A stretch of DNA of 23,044 nt, from IMG/VR virus record IMGVR_UViG_2740892487_000010; one strand, given 5' to 3'. Source of the DNA: a virus (lineage: Duplodnaviria > Heunggongvirae > Uroviricota > Caudoviricetes). Position 1 is the first letter of the stretch. Every line of letters starts with the position of its first letter. The position numbers and the translations under genes were made by a program. A model generated the notes under the pieces. It was not told the origin of the DNA. It did no database searches and saw nothing but the letters and a program-made list of their open reading frames with translations. This document shows, piece after piece, positions 13,237 through 21,992 of this stretch.

Positions 13237-14147
13237 TCTAGTAACCTTCTGCGATTTTCCATTACCATTAACGTTGCAAATCTACGTGCACTGTCGGATA
13301 TACACGATGAAGGCACTTGGTTAAACACATCTGTAATGGAATCTTCTGTTAAAACGCTCAACTTACCTAACCAATGGTCGCGAGCGGCAACTCTCCCTTC
13401 AACTGCATGTTGAAATGCTTCAACGGTCAGCAAGGGCTTTTTATCAGTTTTTGCTTTGAATAGCTCAGAGCGAGCTTTTCTTACAAAACATGGGATTTGT
13501 CGATTTTTATCTTTAGTATTAAGCCGTTCGTTACGCTCATCATCTAACATCTCCCTTCCTAAACTAGCGGCATGATCGTATGTTGGACACAAAAACTGCT
13601 CACCAGTTTCATTGTTAAGCATGATCGCCCAATTTTCATGATGGCGATCTTGATTACTCACAAGTGCATCGAGCATCAAAAATCCACAAAATACATCTGC
13701 TGCATTTAGCCCGGTTAGATCATATACACTCGGAGGAGGCTTGATAGATTCCCTATCTAAACAACCCAATACCCTTGTGACAGTGTGTTCTCTGACCCTT
13801 ACCGGCTTTTCCCCGGCTTGTAAAGGCCCTGGATAATCGAATGTCGAACTGTGAAGCACTTCATTTCCCATTACCATCCGGAAACCAGATGGAATGATAT
13901 TCTGAGTCACCACACCGAATCGACCATTGTATCGCGCCAAATCATAGCTAGCATGTGGAATGTTAAGCAAATGACATAACTCAGCAGCACACTTTTCAGA
14001 CCAATGCTCGCCAGTACCTGGCCTAGAGTACTTAAACAACTGCAAATTTACAGTGTCATCGGAGAAATAGAACCAAAACTTCTCTTTGGTTCCTAACTGT
14101 TCAAGATCGTTAGCTACGGGGCTAAGCTCTACCAATTGGTATGGCAT
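13233..14147 (-). CDS. HipA-family Ser/Thr protein kinase core (HipT-like, lacks the N-terminal subdomain)
   Basis: 304 aa; Gly-rich loop LGTKEKFWF (compare HipA VAGAQEKTAL), catalytic motif LVSNQDRHHENWAIM (compare HipA GATDGHAKNFSV), metal-binding motif LCPTYDHAAS (compare HipA TPFYDIIS); ATG with AGGGA ribosome-binding site. Confidence 0.7.
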   Translation of the reverse strand: MPYQLVELSPVANDLEQLGTKEKFWFYFSDDTVNLQLFKYSRPGTGEHWSEKCAAELCHLLNIPHASYDLARYNGRFGVVTQNIIPSGFRMVMGNEVLHSSTFDYPGPLQAGEKPVRVREHTVTRVLGCLDRESIKPPPSVYDLTGLNAADVFCGFLMLDALVSNQDRHHENWAIMLNNETGEQFLCPTYDHAASLGREMLDDERNERLNTKDKNRQIPCFVRKARSELFKAKTDKKPLLTVEAFQHAVEGRVAARDHWLGKLSVLTEDSITDVFNQVPSSCISDSARRFATLMVMENRRRLLE

Positions 14148-14299
14148 CTGACATCCCTGTTTAGCGGATTATGAATAAGTTAGGTTCCATTTTATCCAAA
14201 CATTGTCAAATACTCTAAGATTTATTAGATGATAGAGCGATACTGTATGCATGTCCAGCAATCAAATCAATATATAACTCTTATATGACTTAGCGCGCG

Positions 14300-14322
14300 C
14301 TCGTATCCCCGCCACGCCTGCC
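14300..14322. other. Putative cos (cohesive end / terminase recognition) site
   Basis: Minus-strand GGCGTGGCGGGGA... matches the first 13 nt of the 19-nt cohesive end as I recall it for 186/P2 (GGCG(T/A)GGCGGGGAAAGCA.); the 3' part diverges; lies between the tum-like gene and the portal gene as in 186. Confidence 0.4.
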
Positions 14323-14363
14323 CGCTTTATGTAGTGGTTTTCATGCAGGTGCATGATCTACGC

Positions 14364-14387
14364 AAAAGCCCGCCAGTTCTGGCGGGC
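14364..14387 (-). terminator. Hairpin with T-run on the minus strand (possible terminator insulating cos and the cargo operon from leftward read-through)
   Basis: GCCCGCCA-gttc-TGGCGGGC stem-loop preceded on the plus strand by AAAA, i.e. followed by TTTT on the minus strand. Confidence 0.35.
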
Positions 14388-14660
14388 CTTAGCGAAAACG
14401 ATCCTCAAACGATCATGCAATCTCATGCAGCATAGACATGCACAGACGAGTAAAGCGAATCGGACCTTACGCAAGGTGAACTCCTCAGCGGGCATAATCA
14501 GTATGTCGGAAGATCTCTAAAAATAAATAATTCGGTTAACAGGTATGCTTACAAAAGCATATATTTGATTAAAAATCATGTAAGGGGGAGGATCTCAAAC
14601 TGAATCGCCACGGGTTTTACAAATTTCGATAGTCTCTCTAACGTTTCGGCTGAGGTCAAA

Positions 14661-15086
14661 ATGAAAAGCTTTTACGTATTAATTTTAATTCTGGTTGCAA
14701 GCTTTGTTAGCGTCCCAGTTCAGGCGGTAACAGCTAAAAACTATGAGAAAGGAACTAAAGCTCAACAGAAATCAATATCTTACCTTTCATGTGCATTCTA
14801 TGGCAGTAGCACACAATTAGATCCTAGCTACACGGAGCAAGTACCTACAGCCGATATCAAGATATTACAGAAAGCAGCTTACCACGCTTACAACGATGCG
14901 CTCTCATACTTTGGCTATGAGGAACCAGATCACGAACAACGCATAATTGATTATGCTGAATTTGTGGCGTCGCAAGAAGCTGTGTTATGGGATAAGCCGG
15001 GAATGAATGGAAAGCAGGTAACACTAATTGCTCGTTCTCTCTACAATGAGAGTAACTGTAACTTGTTACTGGACTCAATTAAGTAG
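14661..15086 (+). CDS. Secreted/periplasmic protein of unknown function (cargo gene)
   Basis: 141 aa; N-terminal signal peptide MKSFYVLILILVASFVSVPVQA; AT-rich codon usage unlike the phage core; GAGG ribosome-binding site; possible promoter TTTACA-17-TAACGT at about 14616-14644. Confidence 0.55.
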   Translation: MKSFYVLILILVASFVSVPVQAVTAKNYEKGTKAQQKSISYLSCAFYGSSTQLDPSYTEQVPTADIKILQKAAYHAYNDALSYFGYEEPDHEQRIIDYAEFVASQEAVLWDKPGMNGKQVTLIARSLYNESNCNLLLDSIK

Positions 15087-15245
15087 GAAAAAGATGGTAT
15101 TTTGCCCGTAGTTTCAACCTTAATCTCCGAACCTGTCGCAGAACGGGCGTTCACTCATCAAATAAACGCCACACCTAACGCCTCACTGTACTCGTTGTTC
15201 AACCTTGCTGACGCCAGAACCAAGTTCAGACGCCAGCAACTTTTC

Positions 15246-15479
15246 TTAATGCAGCCAGCTGTCGTCTTCCCACACCTTCTGCATAATCTTCATCACTTGT
15301 TTTCTTTCTTCGTCCAGTTGCAGTCCGGTCAGTTCCACACCGTTAGAGCTACCTTTGCGGATGCGAATTACCATTTTGGGATACAGGGGGCGCAGATTGC
15401 GGTAAAGCTCGGATTCAAGGGCGTCCAGGGTAGACTGGCTAATCTTCTGCTCTTTATCGATCATTATTTCAATGCGCAT
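15246..15479 (-). CDS. DinI-family protein, likely SOS-inducible antirepressor (phage 186 Tum-like)
   Basis: Track ORF 15246..15551; DinI-like core starts at ATG about 15479 (MRIEIMIDKEQ...LDALESEL...WEDDSWL) with AGGTGA ribosome-binding site; LexA box upstream; same position as tum in 186. N-terminal extent uncertain. Confidence 0.6.
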   Translation of the reverse strand: MRIEIMIDKEQKISQSTLDALESELYRNLRPLYPKMVIRIRKGSSNGVELTGLQLDEERKQVMKIMQKVWEDDSWLH

Positions 15480-15719
15480 AAAGGTCACCTCAGCTGATGA
15501 CATCCATTGAGCGGTTGTATTCGTGGGTTCTGATTTTTGCCATGAGTTCATCAGTCAATTCAGAAACCCACTGCAGAGCCAGCCCCTTCTCTTCATCACT
15601 ACACTCACTAGCCGCTACAAGCTTAAGAAAAAAAATCAATGCGCTGGAGCTTCAAAGACTCCAAAAAATAGTCCTGCATCTTTCCTCCTATGACACCAAA
15701 GCAATACTGTATATATAAC

Positions 15720-15739
15720 CACTGTTTATATTTACAGTA
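15720..15739. promoter_or_regulatory. LexA operator (SOS box)
   Basis: cACTGTTTATATTTACAGTa fits CTGT-N8-ACAG with an AT-rich spacer; adjacent partial half-site TACTGTATATATAACC; between the end of A and the DinI-like gene. Confidence 0.65.
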
Positions 15740-15831
15740 TATAATAATCTTACTGATGTAAAACGTTTTTTTACGTTCATCAGCCTGAAATGCCTGGTAT
15801 TATTAAGAGCACGAATTGTTAACCCGCGTAA

Positions 15832-18247
15832 TTAATACAGGTTTCGCCACTTATCATCTTCCTGCAAACGCTGGTTCCGATAGAAGATACGCAGGCCTGC
15901 TCCTGACGGAATACTGCCGCCGCGAAGCAGTAAATCGACCTCTTTCTCGCTGCCATCAAATCCCCTGGACTTCAGTTCATACACGAGCTGCTGTCGCTGA
16001 TGATCTGTAATTCGCTGTTTGTAGTCTTTACGCCGTTTCGGTTTCACCAGGCGTAACCTTGCTGCCAGTTCCCGGCGCTCTTTTTTGCTCATACTGTGCA
16101 GGTAATCGTGCAACTCCTTGTCATCCATGCGGGTGATATCCGTTCTGGTATCTCCATCAGCTGATTTGTCTTTCCCTTGTTGGTACAAATTTTCAGCAAG
16201 GGGACAGTTATTGCCACGAGTCCAAGGGGCGCAAGCGCCCTGGTCGGCTGCCGCCTCCTGAACGTCAACGGCCTTACGAACCATTTTCCACTTCACTGCA
16301 TGAGTGCAGATCTTGCCCTCTGCAATGGGTGACCAGATGCCATAAATACGAATACCGTGATCGCCATAGGCGGTTGGCTCTTCGTTTATTTCATAAGCGG
16401 TTCTGATGAGGTGATATTTGCGGGGAACCAGTACGCCGCCCTGCTTCATGATGTAAGTGGCAAAACAACCAGCATCAGCAGCAGCCAGGATGGCATCAAG
16501 GCGCGGGTTATCCAGTACCGGCGCACCTGCTTTTTTGTCACCCTGTTGCCTTGCCGCCTGACCAGCCAGCAATCGCAGTTCACGGTAAGCCTGACGCCCC
16601 GGAATGCCAAAGAAGCGGAATTGCTGAACACGATGCAGAGACGCCCAGGCATTAACGTATTCAGCGTTATCACGCAGGGATTTACCCGTTTCCTTACTGA
16701 TCTCGCCAGCCAGACCACGCCCGTCAATATTCTTACTGATATATTTCGCAATGTAGCTTGTCGGCGTTCCTTTGCGCGGGTTTATCAGCTCAGACTTAAA
16801 GCGTGGCCCCGTGTTATTGCCCAGCTCCTCGCGGTCTTCACGGATGGCAAACTTACGCAACAATGCAGTAATGGCGCGGCGGTCTTTTTTTGCGCATGAA
16901 ACACAACAGGTGCCAGTGAACTGTGCCGTCATGATGCGGCTCAGCCACCCGCACGCCATACCAGCGCAACCCGGCTTTGTGCATAGCCTTACGAAATGCA
17001 GCAAACATGCCGACCAGATAATCGCTGCTTTGTCTTACTGTCGCGTTGGTCCAGGTCGGGTTTGGCCTGCCGTTATTTAGCGTGGAATGGAAACGTGACG
17101 GACAGGTGATGGTGTAGAAAACGGCGCAGTCACCACGCATTTCCGCGATAAGCTCCAGACCTTTAACACAGGCCATCATCTCGTTGCGGCGATGCGCCGG
17201 GTTGCTGCTGCTGGCGTTTACCACATCCTCCATGTCCAGCGTGTCGCCGTCTTCGTTCACCAGTTCATGAGAACGGAAAAACTCCAGCGACTTACGGCGC
17301 TGCTCACGTTTATGCATCACGGCTTCATAGCTGACATAGGGAGATGCTTTTTTGCTGACCAAGCAGACAGCACGCAACTGCTCTTCCCGCCATTCGCAAC
17401 GCATCTTCCATAATTTCCGATACCACCAGTCGGCACACAACATACGCGCCAGCGAACCCGGAATGAGTTCATAGGGCACGGGTTTACGGCGGTTTCTTTT
17501 CCGACGGAGTTGCTCAAACGCAGGCGGAATAACATCCAGACGCAGGGTTTCCGCTGCCACCTTTTCCCATGTTTTGCGGATTTCTTCTGGCTTAACGTCA
17601 TCGGTGGCATACAAATCACCACAAGCGGCATCAAGGCACATGCTCATATGCGCAGCGACAAGGGTAGACAGGCGCTTCACCTGATCCTGACTCATTTCAG
17701 GCAGGATAAGCAGGCCGTCCAGCCCTTCATGGCTTGCCATAAAACGAAAAGATGCAGATAGCTGGCTGTCGCGTACATGCTCCAGTCGTTCCAGACATGG
17801 CTTAATTGTCTCACGTAAATAGCGGGAATAAGCCTTTGGCCTGCACAGGCTGCTGAAGTATTCAATACGTTGCATCAGCGGCTTGCTGATATGGGAAGGC
17901 TGGGCGTTGACGTCCGCCAGAATGACCATATCCGGATTAAAACGCTGCTGCTCATGCGCCAGCTTTGCCCGGCTAATGAGCTTATCCTGCTCCATTTCGC
18001 GCTGGACAGGATCACGTGATTCATTAAAAAAATAACGCTCCCAGACCTGATCACTCAGTGCCTCGCGGCGCAGTTGTTCCTGCTCGTTATCGGCAGCGTA
18101 CAGAGTGATCAGGTTTGAAAGCGCAGAAACCGGCGCAACTTCCGCCGGGTCCAGATAAGGGTTAATGGCCTTTTTCGGGCTGTTCCATGAGAACGCTGCG
18201 GCAGCCTCGTTAAAGCCGCAGCAGTTGTTCATATCGGCATGACTCAT
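15832..18247 (-). CDS. A: Replication initiation protein (P2 gpA-like rolling-circle endonuclease), frame interrupted near 16885-16891
   Basis: Track ORFs 16853..18247 (464 aa) and 15832..17004 (390 aa) overlap; HUH-like GTVHWHLL motif; a 7-nt homopolymer where 6 would give ...[22 protein letters not shown]...; ATGA overlap with the dam stop. Confidence 0.8.
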
Positions 18248-21027: not shown

Positions 21028-21597
21028 ATGAATTTGGAGAAAGGCGGACGAGGCGCCATAGAGCGCATGGTAGAAGCTTATGGATTCAAGACTCGACAGG
21101 CGTTGTGCGATCATTTAGGAATCTCTAAAAGTACACTCGCCACACGCTACATGCGTGACTCATTCCCAGCAGAATGGGTAATCCAGTGCGCCCTTGAAAC
21201 AGGCACCTCGCTTAATTGGCTCACAACCGGGCATGGTTCAAAGCAAACTTCAGGTAATACAAATACTATGGAAGTTGCTAAATATGTATTATCTGATGGG
21301 GCCTTGTGTGAAGACGGTTTTTATATTTTCGATAGAGAATTTCTACCGTCGGCATTCAAGAATCTTTTTGTAATCACAGATAATAATTCTGAATTTATTT
21401 GTGATAAGGAATTTGATGATATACGTGATGGTAAATGGGTAATAAGTATTGATGGCGAAATAACGATCCGTGACATTACTCGTTTACCCGGTGGAAGAAT
21501 CTTCGTCGAGGGTGGAAACAGAGCCTTTGAATGTAAGATAGAAGACATTGAAATAATTGGTAAAATTATAAGTTTAACAGTCAAGTATGTTAAATAG
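21028..21597 (+). CDS. cI: Immunity repressor, phage 186 CI-type
   Basis: Track ORF from GTG 21022; likely ATG at 21028 with GGAG ribosome-binding site; AYGFKTRQALCDHLGISKSTLATRYMR...CALETGTSLNWLTTGHG matches the 186 CI N-terminal domain pattern. Confidence 0.75.
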   Translation: MNLEKGGRGAIERMVEAYGFKTRQALCDHLGISKSTLATRYMRDSFPAEWVIQCALETGTSLNWLTTGHGSKQTSGNTNTMEVAKYVLSDGALCEDGFYIFDREFLPSAFKNLFVITDNNSEFICDKEFDDIRDGKWVISIDGEITIRDITRLPGGRIFVEGGNRAFECKIEDIEIIGKIISLTVKYVK

Positions 21598-21804: not shown

Positions 21805-21992
21805 CTTTTGCTTTTATATCTGCGCCTAAAATAAAAATGAGCCACAGGTTAACCGCAAAAGTTACATGATCACATAGCAAAAAGAATAGCCTACTTCATT
21901 ATGGCTTCAGTGAGATGTATGGTCGCAGGATTTCATACATTGACACTGGTTATACATACAGTAAAAATGCTCTCTATTGGAGGGCATTTTTT

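Follow-up and report, generated by a model that had tools for sequence, protein, structure and literature searches.

Downstream of replication gene A, the phage considered here carries a short operon under an apparent LexA operator. This locus raises the question of which of its products would free the prophage from its repressor after DNA damage, and of whether the gene concerned is really broken, as the sequence reads. The window, that is, the whole stretch of 23,044 nucleotides of viral DNA that was analysed, had been the object of a preliminary description, in which a LexA operator was placed between gene A and an ORF of the DinI family and the whole was interpreted as an induction module of the type of phage 186. 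All these elements were found where they had been placed, and the 186-style wiring was borne out, since a LexA operator at the promoter, homologues of tum and a CI repressor of the 186 type are all present. The region is very probably the SOS operon of a Fels-2/PSP3-like phage of the P2/186 family (Peduoviridae) integrated in a host of the Escherichia type, in which tumA would encode the antirepressor and the truncation of this gene would be artefactual.

The module lies on the minus strand, directly after gene A, on the border of the accessory genes that precede the portal gene Q (Table 1), and the order gene A, 62-aa ORF, DinI-like gene, accessory genes and portal is common to the relatives. 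The locus matches 56 phage records, from Klebsiella, Escherichia and Salmonella phages including Fels-2, as well as about a quarter of the complete E. coli genomes. The ORF listed at 15246-15551 is really a 77-aa gene (tumB) starting further inside, at the ATG at 15479. A reading of the locus as non-coding RNA was dropped, since Rfam holds no RNA family matching positions 14000-16500.

Table 1. Coordinates of the features of the SOS module, of the CI gene and of the length changes private to the window.
Feature	Position	Strand	Remarks
Gene A stop	15832		
Hairpin, candidate terminator/insulator for the early operon	15752-15784	-	33 nt; 3' arm includes the -35 hexamer
Putative sigma-70 promoter	15734-15762	-	-35 TTTACA 15762-15757, 17-nt spacer, -10 TACTGT 15739-15734
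LexA box 1, distal	15720-15739	-	TACTGTAAATATAAACAGTG; overlapping with both the -10 hexamer and the predicted start of transcription
LexA box 2, proximal	15705-15724	-	CAGTGGTTATATATACAGTA
tumA-type antirepressor gene (predicted)	15490-15689	-	RBS AGGAGG 15689-15684, ATG 15679-15677, stop TGA 15492-15490
A/T homopolymer of 8 bases, with +1 insertion frameshifting tumA	15628-15635	.	
tumB, 77-aa DinI-family gene	15246-15490	-	RBS GAGGTGA, ATG 15479, stop 15248-15246
Inverted repeat directly after tumB, candidate bidirectional terminator	15205-15239	.	T-rich tail on + strand
186-type CI immunity repressor, 189 aa	21028-21597	+	presumed TumA target
Private indel, scaffold gpO	9216		window T7, relatives T6
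Private indel, intergenic	9528		window A7, relatives A6
Private indel, terminase gpP	11118		window T7, relatives T6
Private indel, terminase gpP	11905		window T7, relatives T5
Private indel, HIRAN gene	12884		window T8, relatives T7
Private indel, tumA	15628		window A8, relatives A7
Private indel, gene A	16885		window T7, relatives T6
Private indel, int	22795		window A5, relatives A6

The near-consensus LexA operator which had been proposed at about 15722-15737 is present at these positions as a perfect CTGT-N8-ACAG, CTGTTTATATTTACAG, the sole exact occurrence of this pattern in the window. The bare 16-mer core is common, 0.32 copies being expected per window and at least one being found in 25% of shuffles. 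Weight-matrix scoring, which the preliminary description had put forward as a check of the operator, was carried out with a symmetric 20-mer matrix built on 27 E. coli LexA sites, the scores of which are semi-quantitative. On this matrix, whose training sites range from 12.7 to 27.2 bits, box 1 (read from 15739 to 15720) reached 23-24 bits (23.3-24.0) and box 2, TACTGTATATATAACCACTG, 18-19 bits (18.4-18.9), both values falling within that span. Sites scoring 18 bits or more numbered four in the window, against 0.004 expected per 23 kb of Markov-simulated sequence, while the next-best site in the same window stood at 8 bits. The adjacent half-site mentioned in the same description is thus real as to its place, 15705-15724; it is, however, a second LexA box of a double operator and not a mere half-site. 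The centres of the two boxes are offset by 15 nt and the 37-bp operator region forms one large palindrome. Taken together, the two boxes correspond in sequence to a colicin-type double SOS operator. Such a double lock may keep tum silent until LexA is deeply depleted, which would be sensible for an irreversible lysis decision.

The operator is also conserved among relatives. Box 1 is identical in 813R9, 500465-1, Cartapus, Fels-2, E. coli HS and L009, and a LexA box of at least 21 bits stands just 5' of the start of tumA or tum in 186, PSP3, Fels-2, SopEPhi, ESSI2_ev015, ESSI-2 and a Yersinia phage. In a MAFFT alignment, the counterpart of the lone LexA box of 186, PSP3, ESSI-2 and the Yersinia phages is box 2, box 1 being an extra upstream site common to Fels-2, SopEPhi and the E. 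coli prophages. The -10 hexamer TACTGT sits inside box 1, as in p95 of phage 186, a promoter annotated as LexA-repressed (TTCACA-N18-TACTGT), in which the -10 constitutes the left end of the box. By analogy with this annotated promoter, the putative promoter of the window was assigned as the equivalent of p95. A generic promoter/terminator scanner made zero calls on the minus strand between 15000 and 16000; the promoter was missed because TACTGT breaks the -10 rule of the scanner.

The module appears to be delimited by two folded elements. Between the gene A stop and the tum promoter, the hairpin was predicted by RNA folding at -12 kcal/mol, with z = -2.97 against shuffles, and it may act as a terminator or insulator for the early operon. 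Terminator-like palindromes are likewise reported to precede the LexA boxes of the Gifsy SOS loci (Lemire et al., PMC3121763). At the other end, the inverted repeat that follows tumB folds at -21 to -22 kcal/mol, but with a z of -1.6; its T-rich tail could conceivably serve the convergent 141-aa gene at 14661-15086, and its position is comparable to that of the partial terminator t95a of 186.

Two other strong LexA boxes, the only ones besides those of the tum operator, were observed in the 23-kb window. One (21944-21963) falls in the spacer between the hexamers of a near-consensus promoter, TTGACA-N17-AAAAAT, some 30 nt upstream of int, and the other (14241-14260) precedes by about 95 nt a HipA-domain/HIRAN pair listed as the PADLOC defence candidate PDC-M03. 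Relatives retain both boxes, and E. coli HS has that of int as well; a literature search for LexA-controlled int in P2-like phages returned nothing relevant. It is possible, and we propose it only tentatively, that the tum operator is one node of a small undescribed phage-borne SOS regulon. If the two boxes were functional, LexA would coordinate antirepression, the supply of integrase for excision and accessory defence in Fels-2-like prophages.

With regard to the first gene of the operon, the short ORF with a strong ribosome-binding site and the A/T run of 8 nt within it, both pointed out beforehand, are present. As written, the tumA reading frame is not intact, the 8-base run breaking the gene, so that it encodes 18 aa and meets a stop at 15625-15623, just beyond the run. 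With one base removed it encodes 62 aa, MQDYFLESLKLQRIDFFLKLVAASECSDEEKGLALQWVSELTDELMAKIRTHEYNRSMDVIS, and its TGA forms part of GAGGTGA, the ribosome-binding site of the DinI-like gene. The preliminary description was therefore right in stating that a run shorter by one base would extend the ORF up to that ribosome-binding site, the length being 62 aa instead of the approximately 58 then given. Its suspicion that a homopolymer indel hides the structure of a tum-like gene was likewise confirmed when the run was compared with three related phages, four E. coli prophages and E. coli HS: the window holds 8 bases, and all aligned relatives hold 7, which gives the 62-aa ORF in every one of them.

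The repaired product belongs, by its profile matches, to the Tum lineage. In fact, against PHROG it matched phrog_698 with E = 3.6e-38, phrog_8554 with 2.4e-8 and, weakly, phrog_1993 with 2.2e-3, and the N-terminus of 186 Tum (44-61 residues) matched the same three families in a colinear manner, with E values of 2.7e-5 (residues 7-44 against phrog_698), 1.4e-11 and 1.4e-22, respectively. Pairwise BLASTP of the 62-aa protein against 186 Tum and PSP3 TumA produced no alignment, and Pfam and NCBIfam contain no family for it. Among closer relatives, the repaired ORF is 98.4% identical to STM2728 of Fels-2. Profile matches and synteny together identify the 62-aa protein as the presumptive counterpart of the N-terminal, antirepressor half of 186 Tum.

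The second gene, tumB, covers the other half. Its product scored 81.5 bits against the Pfam family DinI, PF06183 (cut-off 24.2, E = 5.4e-23), residues 14-76 covering profile positions 1-63 of 63, and 41 bits against the NCBIfam equivalog for chromosomal DinI, below the cut-off of 111; TumB is therefore to be regarded as a DinI-like paralogue and not as DinI itself. In addition, it is 40% identical to residues 71-145 of 186 Tum (E = 2e-23) and 77% identical to PSP3 TumB, and on these similarities the C-terminal half of 186 Tum is its counterpart. The CI protein of the window (189 aa), of the non-cleavable 186 type, shares in turn 33% identity with 186 CI across 175 aa (E = 7e-38); an identical TumA also occurs together with CI variants of 299-311 aa.

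The function of the small ORF has been established in an essentially identical element, DuoHS of E. coli HS, and is extended to the window by analogy. The DuoHS module likewise has the same promoter, both LexA boxes and the position after gene A, with 97% DNA identity; it differs in that its run counts 7 bases and its 62-aa ORF is intact, whereas in the window the run has 8 and the ORF is truncated. The repaired ORF is identical at 61/62 residues to its counterpart ECHS_RS04495 (WP_001154431.1), the DinI-like gene ECHS_RS04500 follows it with one differing TumB residue (M35 against T35), and the DuoHS repressor (WP_001047320.1) is identical to the CI of the window. It is ECHS_RS04495 that the supplement of the Phollow study names as tum, and, according to that study, the deletion of tum in DuoHS and a lexA(Ind-) background each abolish mitomycin C-induced lysis and virion formation (PMC12055606 / PMC11195241). 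The deletion primer NHR28, in which ATAGGAGGAAAGATG is followed directly by TGAGGTGACTTTTATGCGCATTG, joins the tumA start codon to the stop codon and leaves the DinI gene and its ribosome-binding site untouched.

This deletion bears directly on the assignment implied by the preliminary description, in which the DinI-like product would be the Tum antirepressor. According to this alternative, the small upstream ORF would be a leader or an irrelevant peptide, a proposal which may draw on the fact that in 186 the DinI-like part belongs to a single Tum polypeptide and on the name "RecA filament binding protein DinI" that databases give to Tum. Nevertheless, induction is lost in DuoHS when only the 62-aa ORF is removed and the DinI-like gene is kept, from which, by analogy, the DinI-like gene would not be sufficient for induction in the window either. 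Moreover, the annotation of PSP3 attributes the UV induction of the prophage to tumA and describes tumB as a DinI homologue, the short DinI-only products of 186 are annotated as modulators and not as CI inhibitors, and non-polar dinI deletions in the Gifsy prophages are reported to be without effect on induction (PMC3121763). An antirepressor role for the DinI-like protein is for these reasons very improbable and the earlier assignment is abandoned. Because the DuoHS deletion of that ORF alone abolishes induction with the DinI-like gene intact, the antirepressor of the window is taken, by analogy, to be the small upstream ORF and not the DinI-like protein.

As regards the frameshift itself, the extra base could be a genuine mutation, the window then representing a naturally tumA-null, SOS-non-inducible and decaying cryptic prophage with frameshifts in gene A, terminase, scaffold and int. 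The given sequence does encode just 18 aa, and the presence of several frameshifted essential genes in the same window would fit a grounded prophage. Against this, all eight indels private to the window are length changes of 1-2 bases in A/T runs (seven expansions and one contraction), a pattern typical of homopolymer-prone sequencing chemistry, while no other type of lesion, such as IS insertions, deletions or nonsense substitutions, was found in the window-wide comparison with relatives. Furthermore, the 44 tumA codons past the run are otherwise intact and the rest of the gene is 100% conserved in its protein sequence. The allele is also missing from the genomes surveyed: an 86-nt query across the run, compared by megablast with 5,426 complete E. 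coli genomes, matched 1,104 records in 1,101 of them, none of which matched 86/86 or reached 99% identity, the best being 85/86 over 85 bases. An exact-pattern scan for the 7- or 8-base allele in species-representative genomes found a single locus, in Escherichia sp. MOD1-EC7003, which says nothing on allele frequency. A genuine mutation is thus improbable. A regulated slippery site, at which transcriptional or translational slippage would yield a small amount of full-length TumA and thereby impose a high induction threshold, has in its favour that A/T runs can support polymerase slippage and that the 0 and -1 frames jointly encode the full protein; yet the relatives are in frame with 7 bases and need no slippage, the 8-base allele is conserved nowhere, and the existence of seven further homopolymer indels, in genes that are unrelated, points to one technical origin for all of them. 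Programmed slippage was consequently rejected as unparsimonious, and hardly any credence is given to it. Because the private indels all fall in A/T runs, the allele is absent from the 1,101 genomes and tumA is otherwise undamaged, an error of sequencing or assembly is the most likely cause of the frameshift, and our confidence in this reading is high. The apparent pseudogenes of the window (tumA, gene A, terminase, scaffold and int) should not be interpreted as prophage decay unless the reads are checked.

With an intact tumA, the operation of the module can be outlined as follows. In the lysogen, LexA, probably as two dimers, would occupy the double operator, overlapping the -10 and start of the p95-like promoter, and block transcription. 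DNA damage would lead, through RecA-stimulated cleavage of LexA, to the transcription of tumA-tumB, two genes which are probably translationally coupled, because the tumA stop overlaps the next ribosome-binding site. TumA would then sequester CI and block its binding to the operator, as 186 Tum does in vitro, where both its binding to CI and the block of operator binding are reported (Shearwin 1998, cited through PMC3121763). With CI sequestered, the early lytic promoter and operon, including gene A, would be derepressed, whereas TumB would probably modulate the RecA filaments and the timing of the SOS response and not inactivate CI.

These results have implications for the annotation of such prophages. 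The label of the 62-aa induction gene in RefSeq is "hypothetical protein", while the adjoining DinI-like gene attracts labels such as "Tum/SOS modulator"; therefore, the antirepressor role is easily given to the wrong gene. This E. coli prophage type is very common, and about 1,100 of the 5,426 complete E. coli genomes contain the 62-aa gene. In addition, the double operator and the extra LexA boxes offer modest leads on the tightness and breadth of SOS control in this prophage family.

Among the known systems, that of 186 likewise has a LexA box which forms the -10 of the promoter; p95-tum lies in the interval from gene A to the right genome end, Tum is also DinI-like in its C-terminal half, the target is also a CI of this type and a hairpin also stands 3' of the gene. 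It differs in that 186 Tum is one polypeptide of 146 aa with internal starts, under a single LexA box and with orf97 next, while in the window the two halves of Tum are separate genes under a double operator. The 186 annotation states that the 146-aa product "inhibits CI DNA binding" and that the shorter in-frame DinI-only products "modulate SOS induction". In Fels-2 and PSP3, tum is described as split in two, with the upstream gene of PSP3 as the antirepressor (Lemire et al., PMC3121763, the primary source for Fels-2 being Bunny et al. 2002, cited therein). The annotation of PSP3 agrees with this, tumA being "similar to 5' end 186 tum; UV induction of prophage" and tumB "similar to dinI and 3' end of 186 tum". 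Both PSP3 tumA/tumB and Fels-2 STM2728/STM2726.1 also consist of two cistrons 3' of gene A with a LexA box upstream; PSP3 has a single box and a TumA without pairwise similarity to that of the window, whereas Fels-2 has the double box, as the window does. The split tumA/tumB arrangement is already known from PSP3, Fels-2 and DuoHS, and the window does not depart from it; a literature search for TumA/TumB by name returned nothing relevant. The operons of Gifsy-1/2/3, as described in PMC3121763, likewise combine an SOS-box promoter after a terminator-like palindrome, a small antirepressor (gfoA/gftA), a DinI homologue and a repressor that is not cleaved, but their gene order is reversed, dinI preceding the antirepressor gene; moreover, neither the antirepressors nor the repressors are related to those of the window, and these are lambdoid phages.

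Finally, the operator itself has its counterpart outside phages. A 48-nt operator query matched over 1,100 plasmids, among which small mobilizable replicons of the Col type are numerous, and in the two plasmids inspected the matching sequence was TACTGTATATAAAACCAGTGGTTATATGTACAGTATTT (or TGCTGT...), located in one of them directly 5' of a colicin-like tRNase bacteriocin gene. The phage and plasmid operators are identical at 33/38 positions (approximately 87%). On the same matrix, the boxes of the ColE1-like/colicin-tRNase plasmids scored 22.0-23.5 bits, with 15.5 for the proximal one, so that the phage boxes score at least as high as the colicin ones on this semi-quantitative scale. The double SOS boxes of colicins and klebicins likewise consist of two 20-bp LexA boxes with a 15-bp offset which have the CAGTGG junction in common, and colicin double operators are reported to bind two LexA dimers with cooperative occupancy (PMC2994835). 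The likeness may be due either to common descent or to convergence on the requirements of LexA; the colicin operators drive a bacteriocin/lysis operon, whereas that of the phage would drive an antirepressor operon.

A LexA box occupies the spacer of a near-consensus promoter, and int starts about 30 nt downstream. This box has been kept in four of the E. coli prophage loci used as relatives (L005, L006, L007 and L008) and in E. coli HS, being retained even where the genes lying between cI and int differ. In related phage 813R9 and in the Klebsiella 4LV2017-like phages, moreover, a conserved block of DNA starts just upstream of the -35 hexamer of this promoter. The placement of the box and its conservation suggest that the int promoter is LexA-repressed; a literature search for such a promoter in P2-like phages returned nothing relevant. 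Another LexA-like box, kept in L006, L007 and L008, precedes by approximately 95 nt a HipA-domain gene, which is followed by a HIRAN-domain gene. This pair corresponds to the PADLOC defence candidate PDC-M03 A/B (E = 1e-121 and 3e-93), and it may constitute a defence module under SOS control, sited in the P2 hotspot for accessory genes.

Coordinates of the features (in the window unless a relative is named; bit scores are semi-quantitative, from a weight matrix of 27 E. coli LexA sites)
Feature	Position	Strand	Description
HipA-domain/HIRAN-domain operon	14147-12495	minus	
LexA-like box	14241-14260		TACTGTATGCATGTCCAGCA; ~20 bits
141-aa ORF	14661-15086	plus	convergent with tumB
Inverted repeat	15205-15239		
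TumB codon 35	15375-15377		
Stem-loop	15752-15784	minus	-12 kcal/mol, z = -2.97
CI	21028-21597		189 aa
Long-form CI	L005 15826-16761; L008 21541-22440		duplicated N-terminal helix-turn-helix
Promoter upstream of int	21940-21968		TTGACA-N17-AAAAAT, near-consensus
LexA box	21944-21963		CACTGGTTATACATACAGTA; 23.7-24.1 bits
int start codon	21994		ATG
Private A/T-run length changes	9216, 9528, 11118, 11905, 12884, 15628, 16885, 22795		

As regards the antirepressor, an identical 62-aa TumA accompanies CI repressors of differing architecture in the window and the relatives compared. L006, L007 and E. coli HS share the 189-aa form found in the window, and the CI of L005 and L008 measures 299-311 aa and has a duplicated N-terminal helix-turn-helix domain. 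By eye, the N-terminal domain (IERxVxAYGFKTRQAL...CALETG) looks well conserved across these repressors and the C-terminal halves appear more divergent. Since TumA is identical throughout, this distribution hints that it recognises the N-terminal DNA-binding domain of CI. The TumA-type gene is listed as "hypothetical protein" in every RefSeq E. coli locus inspected (L005-L008 and L019); some phage records name it "levan regulatory domain protein", and in some the label "SOS induction modulator" is placed on the DinI gene instead. An experimentally validated induction gene falls here in an annotation gap.

The tumA gene is also among those frameshifted by length changes private to the window; two of these changes fall in the terminase gpP, and others hit the scaffold gpO, the HIRAN gene, replication gene A and int. 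All eight such changes lie within A/T homopolymers, a pattern which points to homopolymer-prone sequencing rather than to prophage decay. A private substitution, ACG to ATG, is found in the DinI-like TumB, where residue 35 is Met (PKMVIRI versus PKTVIRI) and all six relatives compared carry Thr or Ala.

Convergent with tumB lies a 141-aa ORF whose N-terminus, judged by eye, resembles a signal peptide; this ORF is also found in L005 and L008, and a PADLOC search gave no match for it. The inverted repeat between both genes has its T-rich tail on the plus strand, and therefore it probably acts as the terminator of the 141-aa gene and only weakly as that of the tum operon. At the other end of this operon, a stem-loop separates the gene A stop from the tum promoter, whose -35 hexamer lies within the 3' arm. 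This structure is analogous to the terminator-like palindromes that are reported to precede the LexA boxes of the Gifsy prophages (PMC3121763), and it may shield the SOS operon against transcripts reading through from the early operon.
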